The notes under the pieces were generated by a model. That model did no database searches, was not told the origin of the DNA, and saw nothing but the letters and a program-made list of their open reading frames with translations. Positions 46,044 to 63,323 of a stretch of 64,000 bases of DNA are shown piece by piece. A program made the position numbers and the translations under genes. The stretch's first letter is position 1. Each line of letters begins with the position of its first letter. Source of the stretch: Nitrospirota bacterium (GTDB lineage: Bacteria > Nitrospirota > Thermodesulfovibrionia > Thermodesulfovibrionales > Dissulfurispiraceae); assembly GCA_963710375.1 (NCBI GenBank), contig CAVPZX010000003.1, forward strand, positions 256,001 to 320,000, written 5' to 3'.

Positions 46044-46508
46044 GTGTTTCAGGTGGCCCGCTCAGATTGCCCATCTATCAATAGACAAGGTTTTACGCTC
46101 CTCGAATTGATGATCGTGCTTTTTCTCATTTCGCTCATAATGGGACTCTCGGCGGTTTATTTTTCCAACGCAATGCCGTCAACCAAGCTTAATGCTGCAG
46201 TCAGGGAACTGTCTGCAACGATCCGTTATGCCCGAACACTTGCAATGATCGACGGCAAGCTCCAGACATTAAACATTGACCTCGATGCAAAAAGATACGG
46301 CATAGAAGGGCGCGGGTATAAAGACATCGATTCCGGGATAACAATAATGGCGCTCGATCCTTTTGCAGGAGAGGTGCGCAATGGAACATACCGTCTTATG
46401 TTTCAAGCGTCAGGAGGGGTGCAGGGAGGGACGATTGTCCTGGGCAGCGGGAAAAAGAAAGTCAGTATCGGACTTGATCCGGTTGTAGGATCAGTGGTAG
46501 TGAAATGA
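46044..46508 (+). CDS. gspH: T2SS-1 minor pseudopilin H
   Basis: G|FTLLELMIVL; operon position. Confidence 0.85.
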   Translation: MFQVARSDCPSINRQGFTLLELMIVLFLISLIMGLSAVYFSNAMPSTKLNAAVRELSATIRYARTLAMIDGKLQTLNIDLDAKRYGIEGRGYKDIDSGITIMALDPFAGEVRNGTYRLMFQASGGVQGGTIVLGSGKKKVSIGLDPVVGSVVVK

Positions 46509-47071
46509 ATAATGTAAAGGGCTCGCGAATAAATAGCTTGTGCATTCAGGCGCTCAGATTTAGGTCAGATTTGGCTGATCCGACTGAGCAAAACCGCAGG
46601 CGTAGCAGAGCTACGTTGAGGATTTTGCGATTGAGGATCGGGCAAAGATGGCCTGAATCTGAGATGCATCAATGTGCAAGTTATTTATTCGCGAGCCCAG
46701 AAGGCTTTACGCTTCTTGAAATCCTTGTTGCACTCGCCCTGCTGAGCATAGCCTTACTGGTTATAGTGCAGCTTTTCTCCGCTGACCTGCGAGGCATATC
46801 TGTCTCGGACGATTACGTCGTTGCTGTTGCGACTGCAGAGTCCAGGATGAGGGAACTGCTTGACGATGATAAGCTTTCCGAGAAGAACTTGAGCGAGTAT
46901 ACCGATGATGGATACCGGATAGATACCTCTGTGAAAGAGTCGCTCACGGACAGGACCGAAAACTTACAGGTCAGAATCTTTGATATAGGACTAGCCGTTC
47001 ATTGGAGAAAATGGGGACGGGACAGGTCTGTCACCCTTAGGACCCTGAAAGTAATGAAGAAGGAACTATAA
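46505..47071 (+). CDS. gspI: T2SS-1 minor pseudopilin I with a 60-aa MITE-derived insert in its leader
   Basis: G|FTLLEILVALALL preceded by a 67-aa leader; ATG overlaps the gspH stop. Confidence 0.85.
   Translation: MNNVKGSRINSLCIQALRFRSDLADPTEQNRRRSRATLRILRLRIGQRWPESEMHQCASYLFASPEGFTLLEILVALALLSIALLVIVQLFSADLRGISVSDDYVVAVATAESRMRELLDDDKLSEKNLSEYTDDGYRIDTSVKESLTDRTENLQVRIFDIGLAVHWRKWGRDRSVTLRTLKVMKKEL
46519..46698. mobile_element. MITE-like element, family B, in frame within the gspI leader
   Basis: 180 bp with TIR gggctcgcgaataaata; reverse complement of 21926-22105; no stop codon in the gspI frame. Confidence 0.92.
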
Positions 47072-57269: not shown

Positions 57270-58775
57270 AAACGATTGATGTTGTACGGGACGAGGATAT
57301 TGAACTCGCGTTGATAAAGGAAATACCTCTCTCTTTCGCAAAAGGCAACATGGTCATGCCTCTTAGAAGAGAGAAGGGCAGCCTTGTCGGGGCTGTTGCA
57401 GATGAGAGGGGAATTTTTGCTTTATGCGACATTTCCAGGCTGTATAATCTGAAACCGCTGGCCTTGAGTATTTCGCCTTCTGCCCTTAATGATGCAATCA
57501 ATAAATATTACGGCCAGGCAGGTTCAGCCGAAGACGTTATGGACAACATTGCGGGTGATGACCTTTCGGCTGTAGCGACTGAATTTGAAAAACCGAGGGA
57601 CATCCTTGAACTTACCGAAGACGCCCCTATTATCCGGCTTCTGAATGCCATTTTGCAACAGGCGATCAAAGAGCGTGCAAGCGACATCCATATAGAGCCC
57701 TACGAACGGGAGCTGGATGTGCGTATGAGGGTTGACGGAATACTTCATAGAGTACTCGCCCCTCCCAAGATAATACAGGATGCATTGATAAGCAGGGTGA
57801 AAATCATGGCAAATCTCGATATAGCCGAGAAGCGGCTGCCGCAGGATGGTAGGATCAGGCTCATTGTCGGCGGCAGGGATATCGATATAAGGGTATCGAT
57901 TGTTCCGACCACCTACGGCGAGCGGGCAGTGCTGAGGCTTCTTGACAGAAAGCAGGGCGTTATCGGGTTATGGGAGATGGGTCTAGATGCAAACGATGAA
58001 CGTCGCATGGAGACCATGCTCCAGAGGACAAACGGCATTATACTTGTCACGGGACCAACGGGAAGCGGGAAAACTACAACCCTTTATGCAGCGTTGAACA
58101 GGATCCATACAGAGGCAAAGAATATCATTACAGTTGAGGACCCGGTGGAGTATCAGACTGAAAGGGATCGGCCAGATACATGTCAACCCGCGCGTGGGCC
58201 TTACGTTTGCGTCAGGGCTGAGATCAATTTTAAGGCAGGACCCGGATGTTATCATGCTGGGTGAGATTAGAGATTTCGAGACTGCCGAGGTTGCTATCCA
58301 GGCGTCACTCACCGGTCATCTCGTTCTCAGCACGCTTCACACTAATGACGCCCCTTCCGCCATTGCAAGGCTCATCGATATGGGCGTAGAGCCTTTTCTG
58401 GTTGCCTCGTCACTCGCCGGCGTCCTGGCCCAGAGGCTTGTCCGTGTCATCTGTCCTAACTGTAAAGAACCGTATGCGCCTGCAGAAGAAGAGTCGAAAT
58501 ACATTACCGCGCCGGTGCTTTACCGCGGCAGGGGATGTGACAAATGCAATAATAAGGGGTATATCGGGAGGACAGGCATATTCGAACTCCTTGACGTCAA
58601 CAATTCCATACGTCAGATGATTACAGGGAAGACCGATTCCCAAAGCATCAAGAATGTTGCGGTATCGGGAGGCATGAGAACACTGAGGATGGATGGTTTT
58701 GAAAAAGCTGTCAAAGGCGTTACGTCTATCGAGGAGGTCTTGAGGGTGACGCAAAAAGATTACGTAGAAAGCTAA
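57266..58775 (+). CDS. gspE: T2SS-2 ATPase (+1 frameshift at ~58157, probably a sequencing error)
   Basis: [16 protein letters not shown]. Removing A58157 restores EDPVEYQLKGIGQ, followed by LRQDPD and two CxxC. Confidence 0.93.
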
Positions 58776-58804
58776 ACCCGAGAAAGTCTTCACCGCGGAG
58801 ACCG

Positions 58805-58996
58805 GTGATTCAGACAGTGGACAAGGCTCCTGCGCTCAGACGCTGCGTCCTGACAGTTCCAAAGGCTTGTTCGCTACGGTCGCTAAACTCGCCCTGCGGG
58901 CTCAAACATAGCGACTGTTTAATGCTCTCTTCGCCAGGAACTGTGACCAGGACTCCGCGATTCGCTCCTGAGACTTGTCCACTGTCTGAATTGCGG
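58805..58996. mobile_element. MITE-like element with family-C-type termini, nested in a GAGAC/CTCTGTG repeat
   Basis: Termini gtgattcagacagtggacaag / cttgtccactgtctgaattgc; internal hairpins. Confidence 0.75.
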
Positions 58997-59113
58997 CACT
59001 GAGACGCCGAGACACAGGGATTTTTTAAAAATGTTTTAAAATAGAAAAGTCTTATAACTCTGTGCCTCTGTGGTTTAGTTTTTTTATAGCGCACTTAATG
59101 AATGAGGTGAAGG

Positions 59114-60289
59114 TTGCCTATTTTTCGTTATAGAGGATATAAGCCTGATGGGATTCGGGTATCCGGGACCGTCGAGGCGGATGGGCTTAAGGATGCTGTT
59201 TCAGCTGTCAGGAATCTTGACGTTTTTCCCAAAGAGGTCACCGAATACGTCCATGATGAAAAGAGGTTTTTGTTTGGGAAAAAACATGGCGATGCTCTCC
59301 CGACGGTTGCAAGGCAGCTCTCGACACTGTTGGCATCGGGGGTCCCCCTAGTAGAGGCGCTCAAGACGCTTTCCGAGGAAAGCACCGGATACTGGAAAGG
59401 TCTTCTTATCGATGTCAGGGAGAAAGTTTCTGCCGGGGCCAGTCTTTCACGCGCACTGGAAAGTTACACAGGGATTTTTCATGAATCCTTCATTACCATG
59501 GTATCTGCGGGTGAACAAAGCGGAACGCTTGACAGGGTACTGGACAGACTCGCCGGCTTTCTCGAAAAGCAGGCCTCGATAAAGTCGCAAGTAAAGATAG
59601 CGATGATCTATCCTGTAATGATGTTATTTGTTGGATTTGTTGTTATGTCTTTTCTTTTCACTTTTGTGATACCGAAGATCGTGAAGATATTCGAGGACAC
59701 AAAAAGCGCGCTTCCTTTTATTACCGTGGTCCTCATTGCAATAAGCAACTTCTTCGTGCATTACTGGTGGCTTATCGCCTGTCTTACGGCAGCGCTTGCC
59801 GCGGGTATCAGGAAAGTGTACAGGGAGCGTAGGGATTTAATCGATAAGGCAATGCTCAGGCTGCCGGGCAATGTAGTACAAAGCCTCTATTATACCCGCT
59901 TTTCGAGGACCCTAGGTTTTCTGCTCGAAGGAGGGCTGCCTATGCTGAGGGCGCTTGACCTTTCGGCAAAAGCAGTGGGTAACAGTGTTTATGAAAAAAG
60001 AATCAGGGATGCGGTAAAGAGAGTCGCAGAAGGGGCCAGTCTCTCCTCGTCACTGGAAGGGTTCCCTCCGGTATTGCTGCAGTTGATAGCCACCGGAGAG
60101 AAGAGCGGCAGGATAGTTGAGGTTCTGAATAAGGCTGCCGATTCCTATGAGGAGGTGTTCGGAAGGAGCGTCAAAAAGGCCCTTTCGCTGCTGGAGCCGG
60201 TAATGATTTTGGCAATGGGTTTTATTGTGAGCTTTATTGTACTTGCGGTCCTGCTGCCTATGTTCCAGCTTAATCAGATGGTGAAATAG
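59114..60289 (+). CDS. gspF: T2SS-2 platform protein
   Basis: RQLSTLL.SGVPL, AGEQSG.L, AMIYP, GEKSG, LLEP. Confidence 0.95.
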   Translation: MPIFRYRGYKPDGIRVSGTVEADGLKDAVSAVRNLDVFPKEVTEYVHDEKRFLFGKKHGDALPTVARQLSTLLASGVPLVEALKTLSEESTGYWKGLLIDVREKVSAGASLSRALESYTGIFHESFITMVSAGEQSGTLDRVLDRLAGFLEKQASIKSQVKIAMIYPVMMLFVGFVVMSFLFTFVIPKIVKIFEDTKSALPFITVVLIAISNFFVHYWWLIACLTAALAAGIRKVYRERRDLIDKAMLRLPGNVVQSLYYTRFSRTLGFLLEGGLPMLRALDLSAKAVGNSVYEKRIRDAVKRVAEGASLSSSLEGFPPVLLQLIATGEKSGRIVEVLNKAADSYEEVFGRSVKKALSLLEPVMILAMGFIVSFIVLAVLLPMFQLNQMVK

Positions 60290-60312
60290 AAGAAGGTATG
60301 TAAGGAGGAATT

Positions 60313-60774
60313 ATGAAGGATGGAAAAGAAATAATGCGTAAACCGTTTATCTTTAACTCGGGCTTCACGCTTCTTGAGATCATCGTCGTGGTATTCATTC
60401 TGAGCCTGCTAGTTGCGATTGTCGCACCGAAGATTATGGGGAAAACTGATGACGCAAAGATAGCCCAGGCCAAGGTGCAGATAAGAAATTTTGAGACCGC
60501 CCTCAAAATGTACAAACTCGATAACGGATCTTATCCGACAACCGAGCAGGGACTCGATGCGCTGATTAATAAGCCTGTGACAGGACAGATACCAACTGCG
60601 TACAGGGATGGCGGTTATCTTGAAGAGCACAAAATCCCGATGGATCCCTGGGGCAACCCTTACGTTTACCTCTCGCCCGGCGCACATGGTGATTTTGACA
60701 TTATCAGCTTTGGCGCCGATGGGAAAGAAGGCGGCGAAGGGAAGAATGCGGACATCGCAAATTACAATATGTGA
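60313..60774 (+). CDS. gspG: T2SS-2 major pseudopilin
   Basis: G|FTLLEIIVV, YKLDNG.YPTTEQGL.AL, DPWGNPY. Confidence 0.96.
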   Translation: MKDGKEIMRKPFIFNSGFTLLEIIVVVFILSLLVAIVAPKIMGKTDDAKIAQAKVQIRNFETALKMYKLDNGSYPTTEQGLDALINKPVTGQIPTAYRDGGYLEEHKIPMDPWGNPYVYLSPGAHGDFDIISFGADGKEGGEGKNADIANYNM

Positions 60775-61402
60775 GGGTTTTTCTGCAATTCAGACAGTAC
60801 GGGGTAATTTTTCTTTGCGAGCGATTAGCCCGCTAAGCCAGACCTGCTGTCTATACGGAATATCATCTATGTTCCAGTTATACATGTGGGCTCGGCGTTA
60901 CTCGCCCTTTGCAGATAACCCAGGCGCTCGACTGCAGAAAAACAACCCCGTACTGTCTGAATTGCAGAAAGGTTTTACCCTTCTGGAACTCCTGGTGGTG
61001 ATCTTTCTGGTTTCCCTGCTGATGGCTATTGTCTTTCCGTCCATGTATGGTGCGGAAGGGATAAGTTTGAAGTCTGATGCACAGAGGATAGCATCGGTGT
61101 TGAGGTATCTGAACGACAGCTCTATTACAACAAAAGATCCTTATTCTCTCACGTTCGATTTCGGGGGAAATACCATATCATGGAAAGGTCCTGATGTAGA
61201 GAAGACCGAACAGTTAAGGAGTCTGTCGTCGGTTGAGCTGCCTTCAAAGGGGAAGGTTGGTGAAGGCCAGGTGATCGTATCTTTCGGCCCGCTCGGGATA
61301 CAGGAAAACCTTGTGGTCCATCTGCGGCAGGCAGGGGAGACAATGATGGTAGTTTTCAATCAATTGAGCGGAAGGGCCGCAATAAAAACAGATGACCGGT
61401 GA
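60746..61402 (+). CDS. gspH: T2SS-2 minor pseudopilin H with a 65-codon MITE-derived insert in its leader
   Basis: ATG 60746 overlaps the gspG end (MRTSQITICEGF...); the frame stays open through the element to KG|FTLLELLVV. Confidence 0.8.
   Translation: MRTSQITICEGFSAIQTVRGNFSLRAISPLSQTCCLYGISSMFQLYMWARRYSPFADNPGARLQKNNPVLSELQKGFTLLELLVVIFLVSLLMAIVFPSMYGAEGISLKSDAQRIASVLRYLNDSSITTKDPYSLTFDFGGNTISWKGPDVEKTEQLRSLSSVELPSKGKVGEGQVIVSFGPLGIQENLVVHLRQAGETMMVVFNQLSGRAAIKTDDR
60780..60970. mobile_element. MITE-like element, family C, in frame within the gspH-2 leader
   Basis: 25-bp perfect TIR tttctgcaattcagacagtacgggg; GGTTTT direct repeat at 60776 and 60971 (195 nt apart). Confidence 0.88.
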
Positions 61403-61766
61403 CAGGACAGCTAACGGGTTTACTCTTCTAGAGGTCATGATTGCTCTGGCAATTATCGGAGGCGTACTCCTTACTCTTATCTACTCATTGAATTATCATC
61501 TCGGCATTGCGGGCAGGCACGAAGCGGTTACTATTGCAACGATGCTTGCGAAGGAAAAAATGGTTGATGCTGAATTGTCGCCCTTGAGCACAAGTGGAGA
61601 TTTTGAAGCGCCGTACGAGGCATTTCACTATAAGACTGATGTAACCGAGTCAGAGTTTCCGGGGTTTTCGGAGCTTTCAGTCACAGTTACCGCAGACAAA
61701 GAGAGCGTCACATTTTCAGAATTGATACACAATAACGTCAATGCATCACTTAATAATGCGACATAG
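61392..61766 (+). CDS. gspI: T2SS-2 minor pseudopilin I
   Basis: G|FTLLEVMIALAI. Confidence 0.88.
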   Translation: MTGDRTANGFTLLEVMIALAIIGGVLLTLIYSLNYHLGIAGRHEAVTIATMLAKEKMVDAELSPLSTSGDFEAPYEAFHYKTDVTESEFPGFSELSVTVTADKESVTFSELIHNNVNASLNNAT

Positions 61767-62391
61767 AAACAATCCTGTACTGTCTGAATTGCGGACTCAT
61801 AAGTCCTGTCACGGGTTTACGCTCATAGAGATGCTGCTCGCCATTGCGCTTTTATCCATCGTGCTGGTCGCTCTCTACGGCACTTTTTTCGTATCACAAA
61901 AGGCGATAGAGGGCGCTGACGATACCCTTGTGAGACTTCAGGAAGGCAGGACTGCTCTGGATATTTTACGCCGGGAACTTGCTTCCGCGGTTTTTAGCGG
62001 GAGTAACAACCTGACGCTTTTTACTATGAAGGAAACTGATATATATGATAAAAAGGTTTCGACGCTTTCATTTACCGCATTCTCTCCGTATATACCGGGA
62101 CTCGCGAATATACAATATTATGTGGAAGAAAGGAAGGGAAGGCTGGTCCTCCTGAAAAAAATAAATCCTTACTGGAACATTGACACAAATATGAAGGGCA
62201 CCGAAATTATCGATGATGTCGAAAGATTTACTGTTGAGAGCCTCTATAACGGACAATGGGTAAGCATCTGGGACACAGGAGAGACCGTTAAATTGCCTGA
62301 TGAACTCAGAGTTACGATTACGGTCCGTATTAGAGACAAGCTCATACCCCTTTTTGAGATCATCCGACCCAGGATAGGGAAGGCGATATGA
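61741..62391 (+). CDS. gspJ: T2SS-2 minor pseudopilin J (leader contains a family-C remnant)
   Basis: G|FTLIEMLLAI; W...WD....LP...RVTI. Confidence 0.88.
   Translation: MHHLIMRHRNNPVLSELRTHKSCHGFTLIEMLLAIALLSIVLVALYGTFFVSQKAIEGADDTLVRLQEGRTALDILRRELASAVFSGSNNLTLFTMKETDIYDKKVSTLSFTAFSPYIPGLANIQYYVEERKGRLVLLKKINPYWNIDTNMKGTEIIDDVERFTVESLYNGQWVSIWDTGETVKLPDELRVTITVRIRDKLIPLFEIIRPRIGKAI
61767..61794 (+). repeat. Remnant right end of a family-C element in the gspJ-2 leader
   Basis: aaacaatcctgtactgtctgaattgcgg vs aaacaaccccgtactgtctgaattgcag (60940-60967); both read NNPVLSEL. Confidence 0.75.
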
Positions 62392-63323
62392 GGGCGATGC
62401 ATAGAACTGCACGTAGTCCATTGAGGAGCCGCGCCAATAACTCAGACGGTATGGCCCTTATCATAACGCTGTTTGTCATTGCAATTATAACCACGCTTGT
62501 AGTCGAATTTGCCTACGGCGTTTATGTAAGCACCAATGCATTATATAACTGGCAGTCCTCGCAAAGGCTTTCTTATGTGGCCAAGTCAGCTGTCAGATTT
62601 GCCTCGTGGATCATCTCTGAAAACAGCAGCCAGGTTGCCTATACCTATCCCGGAACTATAGATATTGTCCGCAAGAAGCCTGTGCCAAGTTTTAGCGGGG
62701 ACCTGACGATAAGAATCGAGAATGAAAACATCAAGTTCAATCTGAACACACTCGTTTTTGCCAACGGGTCAGTGAACCGGCCGGCATATAATTCGCTTGT
62801 CAGGATGCTTAATGCCCTGAACCTTGATCCAGCTATCGCCGACCGGATAATCGATTGGACAGGTCCGGGTTCCGGACAGGTTATTTCCGATATTTCCAGC
62901 ACCAGAGCCAAATTGAAACATGCCCCTTTCGACAGTGTTGACGAGCTTCTCTCGGTTCCGGGGATAAGCAGGGCCGTTTATGACAGGCTTGTTCCCTATG
63001 TTACAATATACGGCAGCGGTGTTATCAATATTAACGGCGCCGAGGTTCCGGTGCTCATGTCTCTTTCAGACTCTGTTGACAGGGATATGGCTGAAAGGCT
63101 TGTGCAATACAGGGGAAACATTCCTTTTCAAGACGTTTCCGACATCGTGAAGGTGGCGGGTTTTGAAACGATAGGGGCCTCACTGATGGGAAGCATAACT
63201 GTGAAGGGAGACGTTTTTCGTGTTGTGGCAACGGCGACTGATGGAGGCATCAGGAAGATCGTCGAAAGCGTGCTTCAGGTGTCCGGCAGCAGTCCTGCCG
63301 TCATCTACTGGAAGGAAATTTAA
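62388..63323 (+). CDS. gspK: T2SS-2 minor pseudopilin K
   Basis: G|MALIITL, KFNLN, IADRIIDW, DELL.VPG, ININ.A. Confidence 0.9.
   Translation: MRAMHRTARSPLRSRANNSDGMALIITLFVIAIITTLVVEFAYGVYVSTNALYNWQSSQRLSYVAKSAVRFASWIISENSSQVAYTYPGTIDIVRKKPVPSFSGDLTIRIENENIKFNLNTLVFANGSVNRPAYNSLVRMLNALNLDPAIADRIIDWTGPGSGQVISDISSTRAKLKHAPFDSVDELLSVPGISRAVYDRLVPYVTIYGSGVININGAEVPVLMSLSDSVDRDMAERLVQYRGNIPFQDVSDIVKVAGFETIGASLMGSITVKGDVFRVVATATDGGIRKIVESVLQVSGSSPAVIYWKEI

Follow-up and report, generated by a model that had tools for sequence, protein, structure and literature searches.

The locus described here raises the question of how a pre-pseudopilin gene can carry a mobile element in frame within its leader, and what becomes of the peptide that the element encodes. 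The window denotes the whole stretch of DNA that was analysed, 64,000 nucleotides in length. The gene lies in a type II secretion cluster with the gene order D-E-F-G-H-I-J-K, and a second type II secretion cluster is located upstream of it in the window. We call the encoded protein GspH-like because it is placed between gspG and gspI and its best family match is TIGR01708 (GspH equivalog), for which it scored 44.5 bits, below the cut-off of 80; the labels 'Family-C' and 'GspH-2' were those of an earlier sequence-only reading of this DNA. The explanation that we favour and consider probable is that insertion of a MITE added 65 codons to the gene, that translation begins at an ATG within gspG and that the prepilin peptidase cuts off a 76-residue leader at the second of two Gly-Phe pairs.

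60313-60774, plus strand: gspG, the major pseudopilin gene (PF08334, E 1.3e-43; TIGR01710 above cut-off)
60746-61402, plus strand: ORF of the gspH-like pre-pseudopilin, 218 aa, with a predicted 76-aa leader and a 142-aa mature part
60773-60782, plus strand: left target copy (10 bp), decayed, its Lys codon now Glu; it holds the non-cleavable first Gly-Phe
60783-60967, plus strand: 185-bp MITE of family A, with one open frame of six, no transposase and the shared ends of other copies
60783-60814, plus strand: left terminal inverted repeat, 32 bp, of which the outer 23 bp are perfect
60936-60967, minus strand: right terminal inverted repeat
60968-60977, plus strand: right target copy, with the predicted cleavage site Lys-Gly↓Phe

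The final 29 nt of gspG are shared with the start of the gspH-like gene, the gspG stop codon overlaps the left target copy, and the gspH start motif is kept in all nine orthologous loci compared, namely those of the genome studied (G000), three other genomes and five metagenome loci.

The element and its termini were defined by other copies. BLAST with 60780-60970 returned 11 near-full copies in G000, the one at 60783-60967 included, and the aligned copies start and stop exactly at positions equivalent to 60783 and 60967; loose ends were seen at 60783 and at 60966-60968 in contigs assembled from public runs. The sequence-only reading had described an element at 60780-60970 with perfect 25-bp terminal inverted repeats. 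The multi-copy element is real, but it measures 185 bp and not 191 bp, and the perfect inverted match that starts from 60780/60970 is 26 bp long because its outer 3 bp are target DNA that pairs by chance. A 61-codon open frame is its sole ORF content. A 16-bp end motif is common to 34 paired elements of 72-252 bp in G000. Duplications with no more than two mismatches were recognised at 21 of the 34 (9 bp in 12, 10 bp in 7, and 8 and 11 bp in one each), and the 13 elements without a duplication at this threshold include the gspH site. Element matches were found in 8/9 same-genus genomes and 0/31 other relatives. Features expected of a MITE were found: terminal inverted repeats, short length without a transposase, dispersed copies with shared ends, a target duplication and an empty orthologous site.

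Related sequences are scattered through the genome. Genome-wide and outside the full copies, the central part of the element (window 60879-60924) has many matches of 44-46 bp. Between gspE and gspF, at window 58803-58996, lies a 194-bp member of another subfamily that shares the end motif, and the spacer that holds it is 335 nt longer than in G005, one of the three other genomes. At the family-A copy G000:C2:435009-435193, the start codon of the following gene, whose N-terminus looks GTPase-like by eye, falls within the 9-bp duplication, which rebuilds this start downstream.

Comparison with G005 reconstructs the insertion. The G005 allele is empty and exactly 195 nt shorter, with an 11-residue leader ending in CKG↓F, so that neither a single-copy repeat nor a long leader shared by all orthologs is found here. 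The target reads AAGGGCTTTA in G005, and its two copies in G000 read GAGGGTTTTT and AAAGGTTTTA; 7/10 positions of the copies are identical today, with 3 mismatches. The duplication had been placed between 4 and 10 bp, and its length is now fixed at 10 bp by the empty site and by two relic alleles in which the element sequence begins after 10 bases. The insertion accordingly adds 185 + 10 = 195 nt in frame and lengthens the leader from 11 to 76 residues; the flanking GGTTTT motifs lie at 60776 and 60971, 195 nt apart as first noted, and the frame is open from the ATG at 60746 to the stop at 61402. The empty allele had been predicted to read CEG↓F, with a basic residue newly regenerated by the insertion, and this was contradicted by the natural allele. 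By comparison with G005, the Lys before the predicted cleavage Gly is ancestral and would have been copied with the target; the left copy lost its Lys because the same bases form the gspG stop codon, which is TAA in G005 and TGA in G000. Public-run contigs match both element junctions without differences and reach 30 bases into the element, with none spanning it. No empty allele was seen at the gspH site among the contigs of 4 public runs from 2 studies; these were 4 of 13 listed runs, and the best of them may be the source sample.

Other alleles point to erosion after insertion. Locus L051 is sister to G000 (branch support 99/100), and in it both element ends are fused, leaving an allele that is 144 nt shorter, still in frame, with a 28-aa leader devoid of internal ATGs. 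We read L051 as what erosion has left, still in frame, of the insertion seen in G000. Locus L055 holds a relic with the same right junction as G000, but an L055, G000 and L051 clade was rejected by the AU test (p-AU 0.016 for 12 rows, with L053 left out and long outgroup branches). One shared origin for the three is rejected on this basis, and the L055 relic would either stem from a separate insertion or go back to an old one that was lost elsewhere on several occasions. The upstream Phe is gone in both relic alleles (Gly-Ile and Gly-Cys there) and the downstream Gly-Phe is kept. The remaining five non-empty gspH alleles carry stubs of a second, unrelated family (family B). In the same operon, a further family-A remnant was found in gspJ.

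61767-61795, plus strand: relic of the family-A right end in the gspJ leader, in frame; the leader is 20 aa from the ATG at 61756

This gspJ leader is 39 nt longer than that of G005, and a full family-A copy is present in the gspJ ortholog P0003.

The reading frame is conserved throughout. Measured from the conserved overlapping ATGs, 25/25 gspH, gspI and gspJ leaders of the nine loci keep the frame and contain no stop; two additional slots fell outside locus L053. The leaders have 19 distinct lengths (8 gspH, 5 gspI and 6 gspJ), and all 16 length steps are divisible by 3; the probability of this is 2e-8 if the steps are free and independent, or 6e-7 with three dropped, values that are indicative only because related loci were treated as independent and family-B inserts are a multiple of 3 by their own length. 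The nearby spacers differ between G000 and G005 by indels of +181, +335, +1, -10, -1 and -1, none of which is a multiple of 3.

This conservation bears on whether the gene or operon is dispensable or decaying, with a frame left open by luck. The assembly carries one extra base in gspE at 58157, a +1 frameshift relative to three relatives, and the genome has a second secretion cluster; both would count for dispensability or decay. In addition, a search with the mature gspH part matched 33/41 genomes and, with the query used, close orthologs were present in only 3/9 same-genus genomes (G003, G005 and G008). The extra gspE base, however, is absent from the contigs of 4/4 public runs, so the frameshift is an assembly error. 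No further frame-breaking indel was found within the operon genes between G000 and G005, and the operon is intact. Together with the 25 in-frame leaders, these results make dispensability hardly credible.

The start codon is the next point to settle, since the element itself offers two more.

60869-60886, plus strand: two in-frame ATGs within the element (60869 and 60884), which would give 35- and 30-aa leaders

Both had been put forward as alternative starts, and both are indeed in frame. If translation started mainly at one of them, the rest of the insert would be an untranslated spacer and the same mature protein would result. The ATG at 60869 has a weak anti-SD match (-3.5 kcal/mol) and is the start used in the public gene call P0011, and two PilA isoforms are reportedly made from one Geobacter gene, which would count for such a restart. 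The ATG at 60746, on the other hand, pairs more strongly (-6.2 kcal/mol, against +0.9 at 60884), and its match is identical in 7/8 orthologs, the eighth being truncated. Both internal ATGs are also enclosed in the stem formed by the inverted repeats, and relic alleles without internal ATGs stay in frame with the upstream ATG. A restart within the element is possible but in our view doubtful, and we regard the ATG within gspG as the probable start of the 76-residue leader.

The properties of this leader are compatible with removal. It contains 8 K/R and 3 D/E and no membrane-like stretch, its best 19-residue hydropathy being 0.84 against 3.02 for the mature helix, and it is thus hydrophilic and net positive as in class III signal peptides. 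Only the second Gly-Phe looks like a working site, as had been noted from the sequence: Gly-1 (codon 60971-60973) and Phe+1 are followed by Glu+5 (codon 60986-60988) and a hydrophobic stretch, and both PF07963 and TIGR02532 (29.1 bits, cut-off 16.3) score above cut-off. At the first Gly-Phe, position +5 is Gln and a hydrophobic stretch is missing. In PMC10191384, prepilin leaders are described as hydrophilic, cytoplasmic, variable in length and cut after Gly or Ala, the cytoplasmic leader alone being removed from the prepilin, and it is from these properties that we infer cleavage at the second Gly-Phe. The genome has a prepilin peptidase gene, which scores above the PF06750 cut-off. The 76-residue leader is likely cut at this site to leave a normal mature pseudopilin, although most orthologous leaders have 6-44 residues and 76 is far above this range.

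A sequence of events can be proposed on these grounds. A non-autonomous 185-bp MITE would have entered the cleavable gspH-like leader and duplicated 10 bp of target, and translation would have continued from the conserved ATG within gspG. Insertion into the membrane and removal of the extended leader by the prepilin peptidase would still give the normal mature pseudopilin, and because the leader would face the cytoplasm and then be discarded, foreign sequence would be tolerated in it. Selection would purge only those insertions that break the frame, the gspG stop or the mature part, and the inserts would erode through in-frame deletions to short hairpin stubs. The leader is thus most likely a tolerated landing site rather than the place of a useful insertion.

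Nothing in the insert itself speaks for selection on its peptide. The frame is natively open in family A and is also open in 4/10 other copies, which are apparently non-coding, so the gspH copy alone says little about selection. A single open frame of six was rejected as an adaptation, as it appeared in 152/1000 shuffles of family A and 379/1000 of family B. With 6 synonymous and 7 non-synonymous codon changes, the gspH copy resembles the other copies, and no protein-level constraint was seen.

At the RNA level, the inverted repeats fold into a long stem (-114.3 kcal/mol, z -5.91) that follows directly on the gspG stop and falls precisely on the gspG/gspH junction, where it could lower expression. 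A known structured RNA family was rejected, with 0 Rfam matches in window 58000-63000 at E up to 1. The stem could have been domesticated, the hairpin or the long leader being kept to tune the minor pseudopilin against GspG; cleavage by RNase III or a slower rate of translation would be examples of how. Several relatives still have hairpin stubs at the same junction, and in Neisseria, transcripts are regulated by MITE stems through RNase III (PMC2229807). Against this, G005 does without any insert, the inserts of relatives vary in family and length and erode, and the insert carries no sign of protein-level constraint. We therefore find domestication very improbable.

The insertion into a tolerant leader, as we favour it, has parallels in other prepilin genes.

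46519-46698, plus strand: 180-bp MITE of family B, unrelated, in frame in the gspI leader of the other secretion cluster (ORF 46505-47071)

Family B has apparently 3-bp duplications and 27 full copies in G000. Its insert gives this gspI a 66-aa leader and is absent in the 7 orthologs examined. Among 17 prepilin-like genes in G000, two (the gspH-like gene and gspI) carry a full in-frame element in the leader and two carry relics. Full elements thus occur at 2/17 prepilin leaders and at 35/2202 other co-directional junctions (Fisher p 0.031), a test that is post hoc, counts the gspH finding itself and depends on a crude gene caller. A database search with the insert peptide returned 12 proteins of 119-382 residues, four of which are prepilins: the query's own protein, P0002, P0003 and P0009. 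P0002, encoded by a different gene in G008, is laid out in the same way, with Arg-Gly-Phe codons in its 10-bp duplication; P0003 and P0009 hold the element elsewhere within the leader, and in all three it lies in frame. By eye, the other eight matches comprise three with the element ahead of a normal start and five that look spurious. In several relatives, leaders of the first secretion cluster are occupied by repeats of other types, and tandem heptamer repeats and further hairpin repeats extend in frame across the pseudopilin leaders of relatives at L059, L060, L061, L062, L005, L009, L023 and L024.

Such recurrence could mean that the transposase prefers Lys/Arg-Gly-Phe-Thr-like codons, so that prepilin sites are hit above chance beyond the survival filter. 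The same register in G000/L051, in L055, with which a joint clade was rejected, and in P0002 would agree with this, as would the Fisher test within the limits given. We reason from the sequence that only four in-frame registers exist between the gspG stop and Gly-1 for a 10-bp duplication, which explains why the same one recurs. Against targeting, the 21 recognisable duplications in G000 are merely AT-rich (69%) and show no such shared motif by eye, P0003 and P0009 were hit elsewhere in the leader, and unrelated repeat families occupy the same leaders. Targeting of this kind is quite improbable. We also entertain, as speculative and unlikely, a broader proposal in which prepilin leaders would be a general host-cleaned refuge for MITEs, the peptide being removed like an externally supplied intein; family A would be partly specialised for it by its open frame and by 10-bp duplications that rebuild Lys/Arg-Gly-Phe, within a cycle of insertion and in-frame erosion.

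In-frame fusions of bacterial MITEs with genes are established, and the system is not a new one. Those described in PMC10969869 and PMC2229807 include Rickettsia palindromic elements (RPEs), ERIC, YPAL and the 107-bp Correia element. Like an RPE, family A is short, palindromic and present in several copies, contains an open frame and has entered a conserved gene in frame, probably with neutral effect. Unlike the RPE peptide, which stays in the mature protein, the insert here falls entirely ahead of a host cleavage site, and its predicted fate is removal. Family A also has a 9-10 bp duplication, and its empty and eroded alleles are known; the likeness is one of architecture, and no sequence kinship is claimed. 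The protein resembles the class III signal peptides of PMC10191384 in a hydrophilic, variable leader ending in Gly, Phe+1, Glu+5 and a hydrophobic stretch of 20-25 residues, and differs from the usual ones in a leader of 76 residues, to which the insertion contributed 65, and in a second, non-functional Gly-Phe. What differs from the known fusions is the niche, a host-cleaved leader. We found no paper on repeats in prepilin leaders in a search that covered main texts and few subscription papers; supplements and the remaining subscription papers, including their element lists, could hold cases. The natural series of empty, full and eroded alleles indicates that pseudopilin leaders gain and shed mobile DNA with the frame kept. 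If the 76-residue leader is processed, the prepilin peptidase would have little upper limit on leader length. Gene callers and pilin finders built around short leaders will put starts in the wrong place, as with P0011, or overlook pilins of this kind.

The source of mobilisation was sought among larger elements with the same ends. In G000, no paired end motifs lie more than 252 bp apart (within 3.5 kb), and a search for a cognate transposase with one query of the L080 type matched 0/10 genus genomes. Among other taxa, insertion sequences with an identical terminal 16 bp were found at least at L080/L081, L087/L088, L119 and L133 (80 of 119 loci examined). The element of L080/L081 is about 2.2 kb long with a perfect 9-bp duplication, and L080-type elements encode a DDE transposase of 529-607 aa (PF01609, DDE_Tnp_1) that passes no NCBIfam family cut-off. 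They share the 16-bp end with family A but, unlike it, carry a transposase, and DDE elements of 2.2-2.5 kb from other taxa with this end are likely candidates for the parents of family A. The transposases of L080/L081, L087/L088, L119 and L133 possibly form an unnamed or unmodelled IS group, and the L080-type elements may resemble the ISMae2 subgroup (ISNCY).

An autonomous parent of another type, IS1182, was rejected: the 2-kb elements in G008 are IS1182 copies inserted into pre-existing MITEs. The IS1182 of G008 scores above cut-off, is 1810 bp long, ends in sequences of its own and made a 4-bp duplication within the MITE.

60896-60899, plus strand: CGTT site within the MITE, the IS1182 target in G008 copies and empty here

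Five IS1182 copies (L041-L043, L046, L047, G008) sit at the same CGTT of five different MITE copies. The IS1182 copies differ from each other by 0-1 of 1810 bases and their host MITEs by 10-19 of 185. A MITE hairpin appears to be the target of this IS1182, whose transposase is also found at L044 and L045. In another family-A copy (G000:C2:213007-213232), a 41-bp hairpin mini-element lies within a few bases of the IS1182 site, and a sequence similar to it is nested in the leaders of L055 and P0009.
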